Shown piece after piece: positions 9,278 to 40,767 of a DNA stretch of 64,000 nt. Position 1 is the stretch's first letter, and every line of letters begins with the position of its first letter. The DNA comes from Patescibacteria group bacterium. GTDB taxonomy: Bacteria; Patescibacteriota; Patescibacteriia; 2-01-FULL-39-33. The stretch covers positions 148,487 to 212,486 of the forward strand of contig JBAZMW010000002.1 in the NCBI GenBank assembly GCA_041649575.1, in the 5' to 3' direction. The translations under genes were made by a program, and so were the position numbers. The notes under the pieces are model-generated. The model did not search any database and was not told the origin of the DNA. It worked only from the letters and a program-made list of their open reading frames with translations.

Positions 9278-10015
9278 ATGTTTCTGGTATTATTTTCCAT
9301 TCTGGTCTACCCAGTGGCCTTTGTCACCTTCGTCGTTTGCGCCTCAATCTACCTGGCGTTTGTCTTTGTCTTCAAGTCGCTGGGCTGGGAGCTGCAGTAC
9401 CTGGGGCCGTTGGTTCGGTTTCTGGCTCGCGTGATTCTCTTGAGTTGTGGCCAATGGCTCAAGGTTGGGGGCAACTGGCCCTCTCCGACTATCGGGCCTT
9501 GCATCTTTCTCTTCAACCACAGCTCTATCCTGGATGCTCTGGTGGCTGGCGCGGTGCTAAAAGGACGGTTCACTGGCGTGGCTGCCCAGGAGTATTTCTT
9601 TTGGCCGCTGTGGGGAACCATTATGCGCTGGCACAATATCATTCCCATCAAGCGCAAGTGCCACGACGAGGCCATAGAGAGCATGCGGCGGGCGGAAGAG
9701 GCGATAAAAAACGGCTGGTCAATAGGCGGCTTTCCCGAGGGCACCAGAAGCAAGACAGGAGAGTTGCAGCCGTTCAAAAAGGGCCTTTTCTATGTGGCCA
9801 AGGCCACGGGCGCGCCGATCGTGGTGATAGCCATCAAGGGGGCGTACCGTGCCAAGAGTCGCGTCGGTTGGTGTGTTCGGCCGGGAGTGATAACGGCCAC
9901 TATCGGCAAACCCTGGACCCTGTGGTCTAACGGAAAGCAACGGTATGCGGCCTTGTCGGTGGAAGAGTTAAGGCAACTGGCCGAAGGGCTCATGGCAACC
10001 ATGCTCGAAAGTTGA
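9278..10015 (+). CDS. plsC: 1-acyl-sn-glycerol-3-phosphate acyltransferase-like (PlsC/LPLAT family), GC-rich
   Basis: NHSSILD (H-x4-D) and FPEGTRS motifs. ATG at 9278 is preceded by GGAGGGAG; an alternative in-frame ATG is at 9263. Confidence 0.8.
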   Translation: MFLVLFSILVYPVAFVTFVVCASIYLAFVFVFKSLGWELQYLGPLVRFLARVILLSCGQWLKVGGNWPSPTIGPCIFLFNHSSILDALVAGAVLKGRFTGVAAQEYFFWPLWGTIMRWHNIIPIKRKCHDEAIESMRRAEEAIKNGWSIGGFPEGTRSKTGELQPFKKGLFYVAKATGAPIVVIAIKGAYRAKSRVGWCVRPGVITATIGKPWTLWSNGKQRYAALSVEELRQLAEGLMATMLES

Positions 10016-10045
10016 GCGTCAGGCGGTTCCCGCTAGCGTAAGTAT

Positions 10046-10075
10046 CCGGCAACAGCGATGTTTGCCGGTTTTTCT
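10046..10075 (+). terminator. Intrinsic terminator
   Basis: CCGGCAA / TTGCCGG stem followed by TTTTTCTTT. Confidence 0.7.
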
Positions 10076-10079
10076 TTAC

Positions 10080-10107
10080 TTGATAAAATCTCCTAATTTG
10101 TTATAAT
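10080..10107 (+). promoter_or_regulatory. alaS promoter: TTGATA, 16-nt spacer, TATAAT
   Basis: The -10 box ends 16 nt before the alaS ATG and there is no SD, so the leader is very short. Confidence 0.55.
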
Positions 10108-10123
10108 TCAGTCAAACATTTTT

Positions 10124-11941
10124 ATGACCGCCAAAGAACTCAAACAAAAATATTTAGAATTTTTTGAGCGCCACGGCCACCAGATTATTCCTGGCGCCTC
10201 ACTGATTCCGGAGAACGACCCGACGGTTTTATTTACCACGGCCGGCATGCATCCGCTCGTGCCTTATCTGCTTGGCGAAAAGCATCCCGCCGGCACACGC
10301 CTGGCCGATGTCCAAAAATGCATCAGGACCGGCGACATCGACAGCGTGGGCGACGACTGGCATCTGACTTTTTTTGAAATGCTGGGCAATTGGTCGCTGG
10401 GCGACCCCAAGGATCCCAAAGGGATCGGGGCAGGTTATTTCAAAAAAGAAGCCATTGAGATGAGTTTTGAATTTTTAACCAAAGAGTTAAATATACCTTT
10501 GGAAAAATTGGCGGTTTCTTGCTTCGCCGGCGATGATGATGCGCCAAAAGACGAAGAATCGGCGAGTGCTTGGCGTTCGCTGGGGATCAGTGACAAACGG
10601 ATTGCTTTTTTGAGTAAGGAAGATAATTGGTGGCCGGCCGGTGGCAAAATGCCCGGTCCTCAAGGCCCGGACACGGAGATGTTTTATTGGAACTCGGATG
10701 AGTCGGCGCCGGAAGATTTCGACCCACAGGACAAGCGCTGGGTGGAAATCTGGAATGATGTTTTTATGCAATATAACAAGGCCGCCGACGGCAGCTACCA
10801 GCCGCTGGTGCAACAAAATGTCGATACCGGCATGGGATTGGAGCGTACCGTTGCTATCTTAAACGGCAAAAAAAGCGTCTACGAAATCGAGCCGCTCTTA
10901 ACCGTTTGTTCGCAAGTAACGGCTTTATTCGAGAGCACCCTGGAAGAACTGGAAGCCGAACAAACCAAAGCCGTCAGAATCATTGCCGATCATTTGCGCG
11001 CCGCCGTCTTTATTTTGGCCGAGAGCGTGGCGCCCTCCAACGTTGAACGTGGCTATGTCCTGCGCCGGCTGATTCGGCGCGCTATTCGCTATGGCAAGCA
11101 ACTGGGCATCAAAGACGCTTTCACTGCCAAAGTGGCCGAAGTGGTCATCGCGCAAATGGGCGGATTTTATAAGGAACTAAGAGAACAGCGAGATTTCATT
11201 ATCGATGAATTAAACAACGAAGAAGAAAAGTTTAGCGCTACTTTAGAAAACGGCTTAAAAAAGTTTGAAAAATTAAAAATTGACGAGCAAAAAAAGATCA
11301 GCGGCCAAGATGCTTTTATTCTTTTTTCCACTTATGGTTTCCCTTTGGAGATTACCAAAGACTTGGCCACCGAGCGCGGTTGGCAAGTTGACGAAGAAAA
11401 TTTTAATCTAGAATTTGCCAAGCATCAGGACATTTCCCGAAAAGGCGCCGAGCAAAAATTCAAGGGCGGTTTGGCCGATAATAGCGAAGTGACGGCCAAG
11501 ATGCATACCGCCACGCATTTGATGTTGGCGGCTTTGCGCCGGGTGTTGGGCGATCACGTTTACCAAAAAGGTGCCAACATCACCAGCGAGCGCATTCGCT
11601 TTGATTTTTCCCATGGCGAAAAAATGACAGCAGAACAAATCAAGCAAGTGGAAGACTTGGTCAATGAACAAATTAATAAAAAGATTCCCGTGGTCTGCGA
11701 AGAAATGACGCTAGAAGAAGCCAAGGAGAGGGGAGCGATGGGAGTTTTTAAAAATAAATACGGCGAGCGGGTTAAGGTTTATACCGTCGGCGATCCCTCG
11801 GCAGGATCGGGACAGGTTTTTTCCAAAGAGATTTGCGGCGGTCCGCATGCCGCCAACACCGGTGATCTGGGCCACTTCAAAATCCAAAAAGAAGAATCCA
11901 GCTCCGCCGGAGTCAGAAGAATTAAGGCGGTTCTGGAGTGA
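10124..11941 (+). CDS. alaS: Alanine--tRNA ligase, short form ending after the editing domain (no C-Ala domain)
   Basis: FTTAGMHPLVPY, editing-site HTATHL and CGGPH. 605 aa, versus about 870 aa in typical bacteria. Confidence 0.9.
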   Translation: MTAKELKQKYLEFFERHGHQIIPGASLIPENDPTVLFTTAGMHPLVPYLLGEKHPAGTRLADVQKCIRTGDIDSVGDDWHLTFFEMLGNWSLGDPKDPKGIGAGYFKKEAIEMSFEFLTKELNIPLEKLAVSCFAGDDDAPKDEESASAWRSLGISDKRIAFLSKEDNWWPAGGKMPGPQGPDTEMFYWNSDESAPEDFDPQDKRWVEIWNDVFMQYNKAADGSYQPLVQQNVDTGMGLERTVAILNGKKSVYEIEPLLTVCSQVTALFESTLEELEAEQTKAVRIIADHLRAAVFILAESVAPSNVERGYVLRRLIRRAIRYGKQLGIKDAFTAKVAEVVIAQMGGFYKELREQRDFIIDELNNEEEKFSATLENGLKKFEKLKIDEQKKISGQDAFILFSTYGFPLEITKDLATERGWQVDEENFNLEFAKHQDISRKGAEQKFKGGLADNSEVTAKMHTATHLMLAALRRVLGDHVYQKGANITSERIRFDFSHGEKMTAEQIKQVEDLVNEQINKKIPVVCEEMTLEEAKERGAMGVFKNKYGERVKVYTVGDPSAGSGQVFSKEICGGPHAANTGDLGHFKIQKEESSSAGVRRIKAVLE

Positions 11942-17520: not shown

Positions 17521-20500
17521 ATGCCAGAAAAAGGACTATCTTTAAATGCCGAGCAACAAGCCGCGGTTCTTCATGATCAAGGGCCGCTTTTAATCGTGGC
17601 TGGCGCCGGCACCGGCAAAACCACGGTGATTACCGAAAGAATAGCTTATTTGATAAAAAACAAAAATTGCCGGCCGGAGGAAATTTTGGCCCTAACCTTT
17701 ACCGACAAAGCCGCCGGTGAAATGGAGGAGAGAGTCGATCGTCTTTTGCCTTACGGTTATGTCGATTTATGGATTCACACCTTTCACGCTTTTGCCGAAA
17801 AAGTTTTACACGACCACGGCCTGGAAATTGGTCTGCCCAATGATTTTAAGCTGCTCAGTACCACCGAGCAATGGCTTTTGGTTCGTCAAAATTTGGAAAA
17901 ATTTCCACTGGATTATTACCGGCCGCTGGGCAACCCGGTCAAGTTTATCCATGCCTTGTTAAAACATTTTTCGCGCGCCAAGGACGAGAATATTTCTCCC
18001 GCAGATTATCTAAATTATGTCCAGGAATTAAAGCTTAATGCCGATGGCGCAGAATTTATTAAAACCATCATCGACGAAGAGACCAAAAAACAATTAAGCA
18101 AAAAAGAACTTAAAGAAATTTTGGCCCAGGAAATCGCCAAGCAGACAGAGGTGGCCGAAGCCTATCACAGCTATCAGCAGTTGCTTTTGGCCAACAGCGC
18201 GCTGGATTTTGGCGATCTAATCAATTACGCCCTGAAACTCTTTACCACCAGAAAGAATATTCTTTTGAAATACCGCAACCAGTTCAAATATATTTTGGTT
18301 GATGAATTTCAAGACACCAATTACGCTCAATATGAATTATTGAAGCTTTTGGTCGGGCCTCAAAGCAACCTGACGGTGGTCGGCGATGACGACCAGTCGA
18401 TTTATAAGTTTCGGGGCGCTTCCATTTCCAATATTTTACAGTTCAAAGACGATTATCCGCAGGCCAAAGAAATTTTTCTCAACCAGAATTACCGCAGTTG
18501 TCAGAATATTTTAGATTTGGCTTATCGTTTTATCAAGCAGAACGATCCTTATCGTTTGGAAGTCAAGCTGGCTGGCGCCAGACAGCTTTCCAAAAAGCTC
18601 TCGGCTCAAAAGGACGGCCAAGGGGAAATCATTCATCTCCATGGCCGCCAGTTGGCCGACGAAGTGAAACTGGTGGTGGAAAAAATAATCAAGCTTTATA
18701 ACAACTCTCAAGCCGTCTCCTGGTCGGACTTCGCCGTTCTGGTTCGAGCCAATTCCAGCGCCGATGATTTTTGCTACGCTCTGGAAATGGCTGGCGTTCC
18801 TTTTAATTTTGTCGCTTCCAAGGGCCTCTATTCCAAGGCGGTGGTTTTGGATCTTTTGGCATACCTGAAACTATTGGACAATTATCACGAGGGGCCGGCT
18901 ATGTATCGCTTTTTGACGTTGCCGGTTTGGCAGATAAGTCAGAGCGATATCGTCAACTTGAATTATTGGGCCAAGAGGAAAGGCCAGTCGCTTTATGAGA
19001 CTCTCAAGCAGTCGGCGGCTCTAAACAATTTTACCCCAGATTTCCAGAGGCAGATTGGTCAGCTTTTGGCGGTGCTGGAGAAGCACGCCCAGCTGGTCAG
19101 AGAAAACAAAAAAACCACCGAAATTGTCCAAGCTTTTCTGGGCGACACCGGATATCTGAAGCAGCTTTCGGCCACGGATTCTCTGGCCAGTCGCGAACAG
19201 CTCGGCTATCTCAATCAGTTCTATAAAAAAATCCAAAATTTTGAACAGACTAGCGCCCACAACTCGGTTAAAGATTTTTTGTCTCTGGTGGAGCTGGAGC
19301 TGGAAGCTGGCGAAGAGGGGAGTTTGGAGGTCAACCTGGAGGAAGAAGGCCCCGATACCGTGAAAATCATGACCATTCATGCCGCCAAAGGCTTGGAATT
19401 CAAATATGTTTTTATCTCTAATTTGGTTGACAAGCGTCTGCCGACAATCGAGAGAAAAGACCCGATAGAATTGCCGGACAAGCTGGTCAAAGAAATTATT
19501 CCCGAGGGCGATATTCATTTACAGGAAGAGAGACGGCTGATGTATGTGGCCATGACTCGCGCCAAAGACGGTCTGTACCTGACTTCGGCCGCTGATTATG
19601 GCGGCGTCAGAAAAAAGAAACTCTCTCGTTTTCTGACGGAGCTTGCCGATTTGGGTTTGCCGCTGGCGGCCGAAATCAAAGCCGAGAGAGTCGGCGATTT
19701 GTCGGCCCGCCGACCTGCTCTAAGCGATAAGACCAGAGAAAAGGCCCCCGGCTTTTTACCCAGTAAATTCTCTTTTACCCAACTCAAGGCTTTTGAGAGC
19801 TGCCCTTATCAATATCGCTTCGCCCATGTCTTGAAGATCCCAGTCAAAGGCAAGGCCCAATTTTCTTTTGGCAAAAGCATGCACGGAACTTTGCAGAAAT
19901 TTTTTCTGTTGCTTAAGACCAAGCAAAACAAACGCCAGGGTGATTTGTTCGGCGCTAAAGATGGCAGTTCTGTCGAGGCCAGCGAAGCCGAGCTCTTAAA
20001 GATTTATCAAGAGACTTTTATCGACGATTGGTATGCCAGCAGAAAGGAGCGTGACGAATATTTTGCCAAAGGCCAGAGGGCGCTTAAAGGATTTTTTGCC
20101 CTGCACCAGCTCAACTGGCCAAGGGTGGCGGCGCTGGAACAGTCTTTTAATTTTAAGATTGCCGACGGCGGCGTTTATACTCTTTACGGTTTTATGGATC
20201 GTCTCGACGAGGTCGAGGGCGGCCTAAGAATCGTCGATTATAAAACCGGCCAGGCCAAAACCAAACTCTCCCCGGAAGACAAGGAACAGCTTTTGATTTA
20301 TCAGCTGGCGGCCGAAAAGGTGCTGGCCGAAAAAGTCAAAGAGTTGGTTTTCTATTATCTCGATGAAAACAAAGCGGTTTCTTTTTTGGGCGACGATAAA
20401 GAGCTGGCCGCTCTAAGGAAAAAAATCATGGCCATCATAGATGAGATCAAAAAAGGGGAATTCCCGCCCAAGCCGGGAGAAATCTGCAAGTATTGTGATT

Positions 20501-20532
20501 TTAATGGTATTTGCGAATATCGTTATAAATAA
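17521..20532 (+). CDS. UvrD/PcrA-type superfamily-1 helicase fused to a C-terminal PD-(D/E)XK (Cas4/AddB-like) nuclease with a Cys cluster
   Basis: AGAGTGKTT, VDEFQDTN and TIHAAKGLEF helicase motifs. C-terminal part has SCPYQYRF, VDYKTG and CKYCDFNGIC. Confidence 0.85.
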   Translation: MPEKGLSLNAEQQAAVLHDQGPLLIVAGAGTGKTTVITERIAYLIKNKNCRPEEILALTFTDKAAGEMEERVDRLLPYGYVDLWIHTFHAFAEKVLHDHGLEIGLPNDFKLLSTTEQWLLVRQNLEKFPLDYYRPLGNPVKFIHALLKHFSRAKDENISPADYLNYVQELKLNADGAEFIKTIIDEETKKQLSKKELKEILAQEIAKQTEVAEAYHSYQQLLLANSALDFGDLINYALKLFTTRKNILLKYRNQFKYILVDEFQDTNYAQYELLKLLVGPQSNLTVVGDDDQSIYKFRGASISNILQFKDDYPQAKEIFLNQNYRSCQNILDLAYRFIKQNDPYRLEVKLAGARQLSKKLSAQKDGQGEIIHLHGRQLADEVKLVVEKIIKLYNNSQAVSWSDFAVLVRANSSADDFCYALEMAGVPFNFVASKGLYSKAVVLDLLAYLKLLDNYHEGPAMYRFLTLPVWQISQSDIVNLNYWAKRKGQSLYETLKQSAALNNFTPDFQRQIGQLLAVLEKHAQLVRENKKTTEIVQAFLGDTGYLKQLSATDSLASREQLGYLNQFYKKIQNFEQTSAHNSVKDFLSLVELELEAGEEGSLEVNLEEEGPDTVKIMTIHAAKGLEFKYVFISNLVDKRLPTIERKDPIELPDKLVKEIIPEGDIHLQEERRLMYVAMTRAKDGLYLTSAADYGGVRKKKLSRFLTELADLGLPLAAEIKAERVGDLSARRPALSDKTREKAPGFLPSKFSFTQLKAFESCPYQYRFAHVLKIPVKGKAQFSFGKSMHGTLQKFFLLLKTKQNKRQGDLFGAKDGSSVEASEAELLKIYQETFIDDWYASRKERDEYFAKGQRALKGFFALHQLNWPRVAALEQSFNFKIADGGVYTLYGFMDRLDEVEGGLRIVDYKTGQAKTKLSPEDKEQLLIYQLAAEKVLAEKVKELVFYYLDENKAVSFLGDDKELAALRKKIMAIIDEIKKGEFPPKPGEICKYCDFNGICEYRYK

Positions 20533-20709
20533 CGAGTGTTTTTAGATAATTTTTTTGAATAATATTAAAACTTTTGTTATTGTGGATAATTTTTGGTATT
20601 TTCATTTGACATACAATAAAAAAAATTTTATATTTTAAAATTATAATGATTATTATAATTTTATTTTGTTTAAATTTAGCTAAATTATTGGTATTTTAAA
20701 AAAATTACT

Positions 20710-20738
20710 ATTGACAAATATTTATCTATATGATATAA
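20710..20738 (+). promoter_or_regulatory. Promoter: TTGACA, 17-nt spacer, TATAAT
   Basis: TTGACA at 20710-20715 and TATAAT at 20733-20738, at the downstream end of a very A+T-rich ~230-bp spacer. Confidence 0.55.
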
Positions 20739-20744
20739 TTATAA

Positions 20745-21314
20745 TTGTAAAAAGATAAATAAGATATTTTTCGAATCTCCTTGCTCATGGCGTTACGCCA
20801 GTTATCTGGATGTATCGCCATTGACAAGGGTCTTTGAAAGGCGTTAGAACTATAATTTAGAGGAGGATGGCGCTTTATACGCTGCCAGTCCTGGCTTCAA
20901 GATAACTTCTTGAGGCGAGGCGGCCGGCTAAGCGCCCTGGGAAATCAGGTCACAAAATATAATTTTGCGGGCCGTACGATTCTCCCGCCAATCACCCTCT
21001 AATAATTGTTCTAAAAAATCAGGCGGGGATCTTGTCCCTGCCGCGATGCGAAGGAAGCCAGTGCCCGTAAATCTGCGCCTGTTTGGCGCAGATCAGGGCA
21101 GTCAGAAAAAGTTCGGCAAGTAGCAAAACAAACATCTTTACCGTGGCCGGCAACTTTTTCTCAAGTTTTATTCGTATCGTGGCAGAGGTAAGCGGCCACT
21201 GCCCTCTCCTTGGTGGCAAGCCGGTTTGGTTTGTATGACCGACCGGCTTGCCTCTCTACTTTAGTCAACAAGATTTGTTGACTGGGGCAGGGAAGTCAAC
21301 GAGGAGGGCGAGTC
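20745..21314 (+). other. GC-rich, hairpin-dense ~570-nt untranslated region (long leader or independent RNA)
   Basis: I found no SD-preceded ORF on the plus strand. Perfect hairpins at 21071-21093 (9 bp), 21215-21252 (11 bp) and 21264-21282 (8 bp). Confidence 0.4.
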
Positions 21315-21503
21315 ATGATTGTACAATGTTGTAAGTGCCTTCGCGTACGCGAAGGTACACAAGGTAGTGAGTGGAGCCAGGAGCCCGGAGAACGTTTGAC
21401 TGAAACAGACGTCTCCCATGGGTACTGCCCCGCTTGCACCGAGAAGGCGTTGGCAGAAGTACGCCAACACCATGGACAGAAGGAGGATACGCGGACCGAA
21501 TAG
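21315..21503 (+). CDS. Small zinc-ribbon-like protein, 62 aa (CxxC ... SHGYCPAC)
   Basis: GGAGGG SD 6 nt upstream. Sequence begins MIVQCCKCLRVREG...W...SHGYCPACTEKAL. Confidence 0.6.
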   Translation: MIVQCCKCLRVREGTQGSEWSQEPGERLTETDVSHGYCPACTEKALAEVRQHHGQKEDTRTE

Positions 21504-21520
21504 GACCGCGTTTTAATTTT
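21489..21520 (+). terminator. Intrinsic terminator overlapping the stop codon
   Basis: ACGCGG / CCGCGT stem followed by TTTTAATTTT. Confidence 0.5.
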
Positions 21521-21776
21521 CTCAAAAATTATCAATAAATTTTTAAAGCACTCTTGACAACATCTTGTTTTTGATTTTTTTTCTGTGTTATAATTTTTTT
21601 GCAGGGAAGGATTATCACTCGTCATATTACCAGTTACACTTTAAACTCTCTCCCCTTAGTGTGGCCTGGCAATATCCAGAGTGCCTTCTCTAAATCCCGC
21701 CTTTACGGCGGGATTTATATTTTTTATTTTGTTAGTGTTTTATTTTGTGTTATAATAAGCCCATAAAAGGAGCGTT

Positions 21777-22157
21777 ATGACCATTAAGCAATTGCTTTAT
21801 ACCATTATTTTTGCCACTTTGGTTTGCTGGCTGGTGTGGTTTTTTGTTTTGTTTCAGATAGACCCGACCAGTAGCGGCCTCTTTGGTTTTTTTCTGTTTT
21901 ATGCCAGTTTGTTTTTTGGACTAGCAGGCGCTTTTTTTCTGCTTAGCTTTGCCTGGCGCAAGGTTTTCGGCAAGCTGAATTTGGAATATAAGATTGTCGG
22001 CACTTCTTTCCGCCAATCGATTTTTTTGGCGCTACTGATAGTCGGCTTGCTGTTTTTACAAAGCAAGAATTTTTTGAGCTGGTGGAATGTTATTTTACTG
22101 GTGGTGGTGGTTAGTATTTTGGAGTATTTTTTCTTGACTACCAAGAAGACAATTTAG
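21777..22157 (+). CDS. Small integral membrane protein (about 4 TM)
   Basis: Four hydrophobic segments and A+T-rich host-like composition. Confidence 0.7.
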   Translation: MTIKQLLYTIIFATLVCWLVWFFVLFQIDPTSSGLFGFFLFYASLFFGLAGAFFLLSFAWRKVFGKLNLEYKIVGTSFRQSIFLALLIVGLLFLQSKNFLSWWNVILLVVVVSILEYFFLTTKKTI

Positions 22158-39294: not shown

Positions 39295-39984
39295 CTACTT
39301 TTTTAGATAATTCACGATGATTTTGGCCTGGCTCTGGTTTTCTTTGTCGTCCTTAAAAGACATCAGGCCAAAAATGTCGCCTTTCCAAAAGCCCAAATTA
39401 ATTTCATAATCTGCCAGATTTTCCTTAAACTCAAAGCCGCTTTCCTTCAGCTTGTTTTTGTAGTAGCCGGCCACCTCTTCTTTCGGCTGGCTTATCTGTT
39501 TCCAGGACAAAGAGGTTGTTTCCATTTTTTTCAGTTCCGGCGAGCTTAGGGCTTTTTTTAATTCCTCCGGCGTAAAACCGCGCGACAAGTCTATTTTATC
39601 GGCAAAACTTTGGCTTAATTTAGCTTTCAAATCATTGGATAAATAAGCCAAAGTCGGCTTAAGCAGCCAGTTTGGTAAAAGGCCCATGATTTTCAAAAGT
39701 TTTTCCTTGCCTTCTGGCGTCTGCAGTTCAATCTCGGCTTTTTCCGGCAGATAAATGGCCAGTTCTTCCGGGAAATCACCCGGCAACTGGTTGACTTTTT
39801 CCACCACCGGAGAGACCGCCAATCTGACAGCGGCAAAAAGAGTAATGAAGATAATTACCAACGCCAAAATTAAACAACCGAAAAATTTGATAAATTCTCG
39901 GCTTCTATTTTTTTCCGGATTGTTCAGGTTGAGTTCCTGCCAATTTTTCATTATTTCCTGGCTAATTTTATTATATTCTAGCAA
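39295..39984 (-). CDS. Membrane-anchored hypothetical protein
   Basis: One TM helix (FGCLILALVIIFITLFAAV). No recognised domain. Confidence 0.65.
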   Translation of the reverse strand: MLEYNKISQEIMKNWQELNLNNPEKNRSREFIKFFGCLILALVIIFITLFAAVRLAVSPVVEKVNQLPGDFPEELAIYLPEKAEIELQTPEGKEKLLKIMGLLPNWLLKPTLAYLSNDLKAKLSQSFADKIDLSRGFTPEELKKALSSPELKKMETTSLSWKQISQPKEEVAGYYKNKLKESGFEFKENLADYEINLGFWKGDIFGLMSFKDDKENQSQAKIIVNYLKK

Positions 39985-40030: not shown

Positions 40031-40240
40031 GTGGTTCATTTCCTCGAGACCCGAACTGGTCATTTGGGTCTCACCGCTCCGGTGGGGAAGCGAAACCAGC
40101 GCCTTCGCTTCCCCTCTGGCTTAACCAAAGCACCTTGGTAGCACTTCCCGGGTCTACTGAAAGCCGCATCCAGGCAAGCATTAGACCCGTTCCCGCTGTG
40201 GCGGCCGATGGCATCAGTCATCAGCCGTCCTTTTTGTTTA
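40031..40240 (+). ncRNA. Candidate GC-rich structured RNA R1 (~210 nt, class unknown)
   Basis: Has its own promoter and terminator (40200-40240). Perfect stems at 40046-52/40066-72, 40084-94/40104-14 and 40150-56/40182-88. I found no SD-preceded ORF. Confidence 0.45.
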
Positions 40241-40289
40241 TCCACAGTTAAATATTTATAACCAAAGAAATCTTTGCTATAATAAAATC

Positions 40290-40622: not shown

Positions 40623-40767
40623 AAAAAATTTAGTTATCCACAGGTACTATTTATTTCTTTAAAAAATAGTTATATAATGAAAGTGCGGAAGGTATTTACG
40701 ATAGCGTACAACCGAAGCAGGCCATCGGCCAAACGATCGGCCAAACGAAAGAAAGGTGGGACGGAAG

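Follow-up and report, generated by a model that had tools for sequence, protein, structure and literature searches.

Comparative analysis points to a large three-domain structured RNA coupled to a cysteine-rich microprotein gene in Patescibacteria

Results

Organization of the locus

We analysed a stretch of 64,000 nucleotides (nt), hereafter the window, in which two elements lying side by side form the subject of this work: a structured RNA (20746-21314) and the gene of a 62-amino-acid (aa) cysteine-rich microprotein that follows it (21315-21503). The helicase and the 126-aa membrane protein encoded on either side are exact matches to MFA5029495.1 and MFA5029496.1, from a 235-kb contig of a metagenome-assembled genome (MAG) of Patescibacteria (Candidate Phyla Radiation, CPR). 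The gene order is rpsI, a 1003-aa UvrD-type helicase carrying a PD-(D/E)XK domain (17521-20532), the interval studied here, the membrane-protein gene (21777-22157) and pheS. As the two accessions are consecutive, nothing is annotated between helicase and membrane protein: the source MAG's NCBI record leaves the whole 1.24-kb interval 20533-21776 empty, the 62-aa gene included, and exact look-up of this open reading frame (ORF) in a gene-position index returned no record.

Co-occurrence of the RNA and the small ORF

Related loci were collected by way of the helicase (80 loci), and further lineages by way of the membrane protein encoded downstream. Six lineages have both the RNA and the small ORF (the window, L181-184, L188, L001/L087-089, L187 and L055), and none has just one of them. 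Among the 80 helicase loci, RNA-like DNA occurs in L001 and L055 alone (65-67% helicase identity), and no others encode a relative of the small protein; L181-184, L187 and L188 were added through the membrane protein. Both elements are absent from the 78 other helicase loci and from L185, which, like L186, is equally close by its membrane protein and carries neither. In every case the cassette precedes the membrane-protein gene and pheS, in the same orientation, and stands downstream of a UvrD-type helicase wherever the contig extends that far (that of L188 is cut off 5' of the second RNA domain, D2). Across the cassette lineages the helicases share 65-67% and the membrane proteins 54-64% identity. 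In the other relatives 0.45-5 kb separate the helicase from pheS and hold other genes or none; in L003, for instance, there are three protein genes, including one of the Memo/AMMECR1 type. Among the loci compared, strict co-occurrence and co-orientation establish that the RNA and the microprotein gene are coupled both physically and evolutionarily.

A three-domain RNA fold

An earlier note, made by reading the letters of this stretch, had described the 570 nt before the small ORF as GC-rich. This holds relative to the adjoining spacers, but the G+C content of 20746-21314 is only 49%, a coding-DNA-like value that is high only beside those spacers (46% for the neighbouring helicase gene, 43.7% for the window as a whole). 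The hairpins that the note had reported are present, with perfect stems of 9-11 bp at four sites (21071-21093, 21104-21161, 21215-21252 and 21263-21283). The minimum free energy (MFE) of the plus strand is -250.3 kcal/mol, against -176.9 +/- 6.0 kcal/mol for shuffled sequences (z = -12.2), and the minus strand has z = -8.9; the plus-strand z-scores of L001 and L181 are -11.8 and -6.9, respectively. Folded independently, the sequences from the window, L001 and L181 have MFE structures with the same three domains, P1, D2 and D3.

P1 (20770-20838, plus strand) is a long 5' hairpin, about 30 bp in length, whose apex, GGCG..CCAG-UYAU-CUGG..CGCC, is conserved. Ten of its 30 pairs are compensatory, 96% of the cells are paired compared with 40-49% when the partners are slid, and none of 500 shuffles reached the observed covariation; the P1 covariance model (R2) scored 74.8 bits on the plus and 25.4 bits on the minus strand, all such statistics being indicative, with six lineages and an effective sequence number of 1.5-1.7 behind the models and with shuffle controls that overstate significance. 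In D2 (20847-21012, plus strand), a helix of about 20 bp (..UAGAGGAGG / CCUCUA..) closes a multi-branch domain; 6 of the 21 pairs of this helix are compensatory. The block CAGGUCACAAA inside the domain is invariant. The inner helices are only partly resolved, one hairpin of L001, L187 and L055 being missing from the window, L181 and L188. In D3 (21031-21192, plus strand) the two most conserved blocks, GAUGCGAAGGA and UUAUUCGUAUC, form a closing helix of 20-27 bp, and the interior has two arms, one a variable hairpin and the other a covarying helix, with 5 of its 7 pairs compensatory, that is capped by a UCGGC..GCCGA hairpin with an A-rich loop. Seventeen of the 49 D3 pairs are compensatory, 90.5% of the cells are paired against 44-53% with slid partners, and again none of 500 shuffles reached the observed value; the D3 model (R1) scored 115.9 bits on the plus and 26.3 on the minus strand. 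Over the copies, the D3 and P1 models gave 75-157 bits on the plus and 23-40 bits on the minus strand. The window has in addition a specific 3' extension of 108 nt (21193-21300, plus strand) holding the perfect hairpins 21215-21252 and 21263-21283, which is not present in L001, L187 and L055.

Taken together, these comparisons indicate that 20746-21314 is a conserved plus-strand structured RNA of three domains and about 450-570 nt, with the properties by which structured RNAs are generally recognised, namely homologues (here in six lineages), compensatory pairs and strand asymmetry. The compensatory pairs found within 20745-21314, in P1, the D2 closing helix and D3, bear out the earlier view of this stretch as structured RNA and not a pseudogene.

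In the Rfam scan that the earlier note had proposed, 20745-21314 matched no Rfam 15 family at E <= 1, the unmatched families including OLE, ROOL, GOLLD, raiA, RNase P, tmRNA, SRP, 6S, T-box, riboswitches, introns (group I and group II) and ribozymes. The sole match at gathering level in the 64-kb window is a tRNA-Gln; L001 and L055 gave none at that threshold, and ARAGORN found no tmRNA. Nor are there tandem repeats in 20745-21314, the only array being A+T-rich low complexity at 20622-20677. A literature search on structured RNAs of Patescibacteria and on the motif strings returned nothing relevant. When the D3 and P1 models were run over 0.86 Mb of related loci, only the known copies were recovered. 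A metagenome scan with GATGCGAAGGA-N95-125-TTATTCGTATC gave three matches, all near-identical to L001 and adding no diversity, and the 79 matches of a D2 15-mer in viral contigs, judged without individual inspection to be chance for so short a pattern, were disregarded.

Several lineages carry inserts in or after the RNA. A 150-nt extra element follows P1 in L187; L055 has the same element and, between P1 and D2, a 118-aa membrane/zinc-ribbon ORF (9832-10188) with a C-terminal CPNC...C..C ribbon. In L188 a 282-aa membrane ORF (63-911) occupies the position between P1 and D2, and in L181 the ORF of a 33-aa transmembrane peptide (1739-1840) lies between D3 and the cysteine-rich ORF. Each of these inserted ORFs has a good Shine-Dalgarno (SD) sequence; those of L055 and L188 are mutually unrelated and belong to no Pfam family. 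Such modular inserts weaken the case for a strict SD-proximal switch and keep alive a trans-acting ribonucleoprotein (RNP) as a rival explanation.

The microprotein family

The 62-aa ORF (21315-21503, plus strand) encodes a cysteine-rich microprotein with the pattern MIVQCCKCLRVRE..W..SHGYCPACTEKALAEVR. With phmmer against 1.84 billion representative sequences, at least 172 clusters matched at E <= 1e-3 (best 1.7e-9), nearly all of 55-75 aa and aligned from residue 1, and a profile search retrieved 278 proteins, the named ones coming from Hydrogenedentes-type MAGs. The family profile, a hidden Markov model (HMM), recognises the window protein at E = 1.6e-23 and those of L055, L187, L001 and L181 at 6e-23, 3e-18, 3e-17 and 5e-16, respectively. 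By contrast with these searches, a word-indexed protein search with the 62-aa sequence found nothing, and Pfam, NCBIfam and the sequences of the PDB gave no family match, the best NCBIfam hits (E 0.002-0.09) lying far below the cut-offs. The cysteine-motif ORF of the earlier note, SD-preceded and conserved in this way, is on these grounds a real gene, a member of a widespread uncharacterised family of about 60 aa, and the HMM search that the note had suggested did uncover a real family.

The family consensus is MxVQCCVCxKVRxxxxW...VSHGYCPxCAxxAFxEIR. In an alignment of 100 sequences C5, C6, C8, W20, H35 and C41 (window numbering) are invariant and C38 is nearly so. The L188 protein reads QYCVC, with Tyr in place of C5, so that C6, C8, C38 and C41 would be the likely ligands of a metal. 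AlphaFold2 run with 100 sequences gave a confident model (pLDDT 82, pTM 0.63) of three short strands and a helix starting at CPxC, the predicted fold being a treble-clef-like Zn(Cys)4 finger with a helix behind it; structural and profile similarity to treble-clef and zinc-ribbon domains is weak.

The earlier note had pointed to a similar motif at the C-termini of PAS or response-regulator proteins. For response regulators there is one weak example, at L090 (2426-3186), where a REC-like protein of 192 aa ends in VCGRCQKVCQDGTWQQL...EHSCCPVCRS and overlaps, by an ATGA, a downstream stand-alone family member. Its C-terminus aligns with the family profile in hhalign (E = 5e-5, probability 67%), and its REC match reaches only E = 0.028, below the Pfam threshold. 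No PAS fusion was seen among the 150 best representatives. Beyond the stand-alone member, L090 continues with a 434-aa ORF and then a Memo/LigB-type gene.

Elsewhere, a family member lies within a phage-like gene array (L094), and at Hydrogenedentes-type loci the gene is found 430-525 nt from a divergent ABC-transporter operon. At five loci (L081, ~2930-2950; L085, ~2940-2960; L095; L096; L099) the sequence GGCAC-N5-ATGC(T), which resembles a sigma-54 (-24/-12) promoter, stands 30-60 nt upstream of the small ORF. Homology of the Hydrogenedentes-type leaders to the CPR RNA was considered and rejected, the two not being alignable, and the covariance models did not find the CPR RNA at family loci outside the clade. 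A tblastn search of plasmid and phage collections with a consensus peptide composed from alignment A3 gave no match.

Promoter, RNA-ORF junction and terminator

The RNA is preceded by a sigma-70 promoter, TTGACA-17-TATAAT with an extended -10 (TGaTATAAT), at 20711-20739 (plus strand). The earlier note had already pointed to this promoter; it matches the consensus at 12 of 12 positions and is conserved almost base for base in four other lineages, TTGACAAA and ATGTGATATAAT being invariant in all five. Transcription would start near 20746. This is the sole conserved promoter in the cassette, upstream of P1, and no conserved second promoter serves the ORF. About 25 nt upstream of the -35 lies an operator-like palindrome of 16 bp (20668-20686; inverted repeat I16), which keeps its position in each of the five lineages where the promoter region is present (alignment A8). 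Its sequence is TAGCTAAATTTAGCTA in L055, TAGCTAAAAATAGCTA in L181 and GGCTTATTTAAGCYA in L001 and L187; the window copy has an intact right half, TTTAGCTA, and a degenerate left half. This suggests a candidate binding site for a dimeric regulator.

At the other end of the RNA, the SD sequence GAGGAGGG (21301-21308, plus strand) stands 6 nt before the ATG, and equivalents are present in L001, L181, L187, L055 and L188. The 3' strand of the D3 helix passes directly into the SD in L001 and L187 (...CGUAUCAGGGGGAAGAAAAGGAGGGCAAUG), within about 10 nt, and about 35-45 nt separate the two in L055 and L188; none of these four lineages has a terminator between D3 and the SD. In the window the extra hairpin 21215-21252 is followed by a weak U-tract, and GCCCUCUCC (21200-21208) is predicted to pair with the SD, a single-sequence prediction within the window-specific extension; the other lineages showed no conserved partner that would sequester the SD. 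Downstream, a terminator-like hairpin (CGCGG-11 nt-CCGCG, then TTTTAATTTT; 21490-21520, plus strand) read from the sequence overlaps the stop codon; the terminator scan passed over it owing to its loop of more than 8 nt. This arrangement suggests co-transcription, with 20711-21520 as one transcription unit, missed by public annotation, that would give a transcript of about 0.78 kb. Small upstream ORFs placed after internal SD-like sequences (UAGAGGAGG-AUG and GAAGGAGGCAAUG) were considered and discarded, their peptides being unconserved and their spacing 0-3 nt.

Pseudogene, toxin and origin explanations

The coding-like G+C content and the short ORFs on both strands would suit a decayed protein-coding gene, the outcome that the earlier note had set against its own view. 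However, every frame of 20746-21314 is interrupted in each lineage, and the note's remark that no plus-strand ORF follows an SD stands, all plus-strand ORFs being of 52 aa or less and none conserved. ORFs opening at conserved ATGs (GATGCG..., and AGGATGGC on the minus strand) share only those residues that the nucleotides dictate and then diverge, the ATG of GATGCG being lost in L181 (GATACG). With substitutions that are compensatory within helices and tested translations that match no Pfam family, a pseudogene is very improbable. The earlier note had also drawn attention to a 38-aa hydrophobic ORF on the minus strand (21019-21135) and likened it to a type I toxin. In such a pair the plus-strand RNA would be the antisense antitoxin. 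The ORF exists, is hydrophobic (GRAVY 0.48), lies antisense to a structured RNA and, as stated, is without an SD (upstream sequence CACGGTAAAG); the toxin assignment failed. Five other sequences were compared, and none has a counterpart: L181, L001, L087 and L187 lack an ATG-initiated hydrophobic ORF at the corresponding place, and in L055 a single antisense ORF overlaps D3, of 87 aa and not hydrophobic (GRAVY -0.28). The start codon of the 38-aa ORF falls within a loop that varies, a promoter scan of the region turned up none on the minus strand, and both the covariance models and the MFE favour the plus strand, the ORF being antisense to a domain whose plus-strand structure covaries. We find a type I system scarcely credible, and a type III (ToxIN-like) system lacks here the tandem repeats, absent from 20745-21314; the microprotein has no PADLOC match.

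A further explanation concerns the DNA in front of the RNA. The very A+T-rich spacer that the note had described after the helicase is there (20533-20710, starting behind the helicase stop codon; 13.1% G+C over 20533-20745), and it holds one perfect DnaA box, TTATCCACA, on the minus strand at 20581-20589, as might a replication origin or a DnaA-regulated promoter. As a signal, however, the box did not withstand scrutiny. It stands alone, boxes with at most one mismatch occur 16 times in the window against 13.0 +/- 4.1 expected (24 of 100 shuffles do as well), and it is missing from L001 and only partially matched in L055. The cumulative GC skew climbs steadily through the window and has no turning point near the spacer, and neither dnaA nor dnaN is adjacent, the neighbours being the helicase and pheS. 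A cluster of DnaA boxes, a skew switch and dnaA or dnaN nearby, which mark an oriC, are thus all lacking at 20533-20745, and we regard an origin role for the spacer as highly improbable. Two perfect boxes on the plus strand (40238-40246 and 40634-40642), 400 bp apart in the intergenic region of two divergent gene sets (minus strand, ending at 39984; plus strand, from 41629), make a better candidate for an origin or a dnaA promoter than the box at 20581.

Neighbouring elements

A second conserved small RNA or leader occupies 21553-21756 (plus strand). It has a promoter, TTGACA...TGTTATAAT, an RNA of about 125 nt beginning GAGGGAAGGAU, a strong terminator (21691-21717) with a U-tract, and then a further promoter (21729-21756) before the membrane-protein gene and pheS. 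It is kept in all lineages with the large RNA and also in L185 and L186, which are without it; it belongs to no Rfam family, a weak rnk-leader match stemming from the terminator only. Between the cysteine-rich ORF and this small RNA, three lineages have a conserved structured element of about 170 nt that ends in a terminator (L001, 9790-9960; L187, 1950-2100; L055, 11010-11165), absent from the window and without an Rfam match at the gathering threshold. The helicase gave strong PADLOC matches to GajB/UvrD-type models (E = 1e-98), which are only generic UvrD matches. Conserved synteny with rpsI and pheS in many CPR genomes makes a housekeeping UvrD/PcrA/AddA-like enzyme its most likely identity, as opposed to a defence gene.

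Discussion

We favour the reading in which the RNA is an unusually large structured 5' leader that acts mainly in cis on the microprotein ORF, and give it about half of our confidence. The conserved sigma-70 promoter, behind the operator-like palindrome, would drive a transcript of about 0.78 kb whose first 450-570 nt would fold into P1, D2 and D3 and whose last part would encode the zinc-finger microprotein and end at the terminator-like hairpin. The leader would set the translation and/or the stability of the microprotein ORF, and in the window pairing with an extra anti-SD segment would close off the SD. A protein, either the microprotein (in a feedback) or another factor, could plausibly bind the sequence-invariant helices that the conserved paired blocks form. 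In favour of a cis-acting leader, the D3 helix ends directly before or near the ribosome-binding site in L001, L187, L055 and L188. Several points weigh against it. The RNA family is tiny, with six lineages, and its shuffle significance is overstated; the inner helices of D2 are poorly resolved; and we infer co-transcription from the missing terminators and the single conserved promoter. Family members outside the clade exist without the RNA, so the protein does not need it, and as whole ORFs are inserted in or after the RNA, its proximity to the cysteine-rich ORF is not strictly required. Conservation of sequence in the paired blocks would be equally expected of a trans-acting RNP.

Such a stand-alone large non-coding RNA acting in trans, possibly as an RNP with the microprotein, and with the ORF riding on the same or a processed 3' transcript, we consider possible but rather doubtful. 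Its size, its multi-domain layout, the invariant blocks inside helices and junctions and the strict co-occurrence with the protein would all suit it, as would the inserts of L055, L188 and L181, with which the domains behave as modules and not as an SD-proximal switch; RNase III might process the transcript at the P1 hairpin, with its roughly 30 bp, and the window hairpin 21215-21252 with its U-containing tract might be a partial terminator. Yet no conserved terminator or 3' end separates D3 from the ORF, the SD comes directly after D3 in L001 and L187, the ORF has no conserved second promoter, and the microprotein family is widespread without this RNA. It is distinctly unlikely that the cassette is a lineage-specific insertion, the remnant of a mobile or selfish element that the RNA serves. 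The patchy occurrence in six lineages, whose close relatives have other genes or nothing at the helicase-pheS site, the variable inserts that the locus takes and the L094 family member in a phage-like array point that way, but no transposase, integrase, reverse transcriptase, or flanking or tandem repeats accompany the cassette, and the phage and plasmid collections gave no matches; its constant site and orientation, with divergence in step with that of its neighbours, fit vertical descent with loss.

A function under selection is implied by the retention, in the tiny genomes of Patescibacteria, of 450-570 nt of conserved structured RNA behind a consensus promoter. We entertain, although only tentatively, the idea that a sub-clade of Patescibacteria possesses a new class of three-domain RNA, with a core of about 450 nt, that functions as RNA itself, for example in an RNP with the microprotein. 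If true, the RNP reading would give the microprotein family its first functional handle, and this family is widespread, spanning hundreds of clusters in Hydrogenedentes-type and other bacteria, often unannotated and without name, domain model or structure. The weight of the finding is limited by its very narrow distribution, six lineages of one CPR sub-clade. The locus nevertheless offers an experimentally tractable RNA-protein pair and a covariance model for wider searches, and it is a case of standard annotation leaving 1.2 kb empty.

Among known proteins, the microprotein is closest in plan to treble-clef and zinc-ribbon modules (the C-terminal domain of PerR/Fur/Zur, ZAD, YacG, eL34/eL42), which have a Cys pair on a knuckle or beta-hairpin and a CPxC at the N-terminus of a helix. 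It also recalls the haloarchaeal zinc-finger microproteins (NCBIfam NF041911, HVO_0649 family), of about 60 aa and weakly similar. Compared with the cysteine motif at the C-terminus of receiver proteins, the window protein stands alone, L090 being the single REC-like example and its REC match sub-threshold.

Like 5' leaders such as those of ribosomal-protein genes, the cspA thermosensor, T-boxes and riboswitches, the RNA lies between a promoter and an SD and is conserved together with the ORF; possible SD sequestration (in the window) and possible feedback by a protein of nucleic-acid-binding type are further likenesses. It differs from typical leaders in being 2-5 times larger, in having three autonomous domains and in tolerating ORFs inside it, and from known leaders in showing no known ligand or specifier features, no Rfam match and no conserved regulated terminator.

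The other comparison is with the large RNAs OLE (RF01071), ROOL (RF03087), GOLLD (RF01998) and the raiA motif. None of their models matches at E <= 1, and the RNA described here differs from them in abutting an SD and ORF without a terminator, in having as a neighbour a membrane protein that also occurs in lineages without the RNA, and in its host, Patescibacteria. It resembles them in its 450-600 nt, its multi-domain covarying architecture and its narrow range, and in the small or membrane proteins encoded next door: OLE adjoins oapA, and here the microprotein and the 126-aa membrane protein lie downstream. Large structured bacterial RNAs beyond the universal ones are rare, and OLE, GOLLD, ROOL and raiA have each opened new biology.

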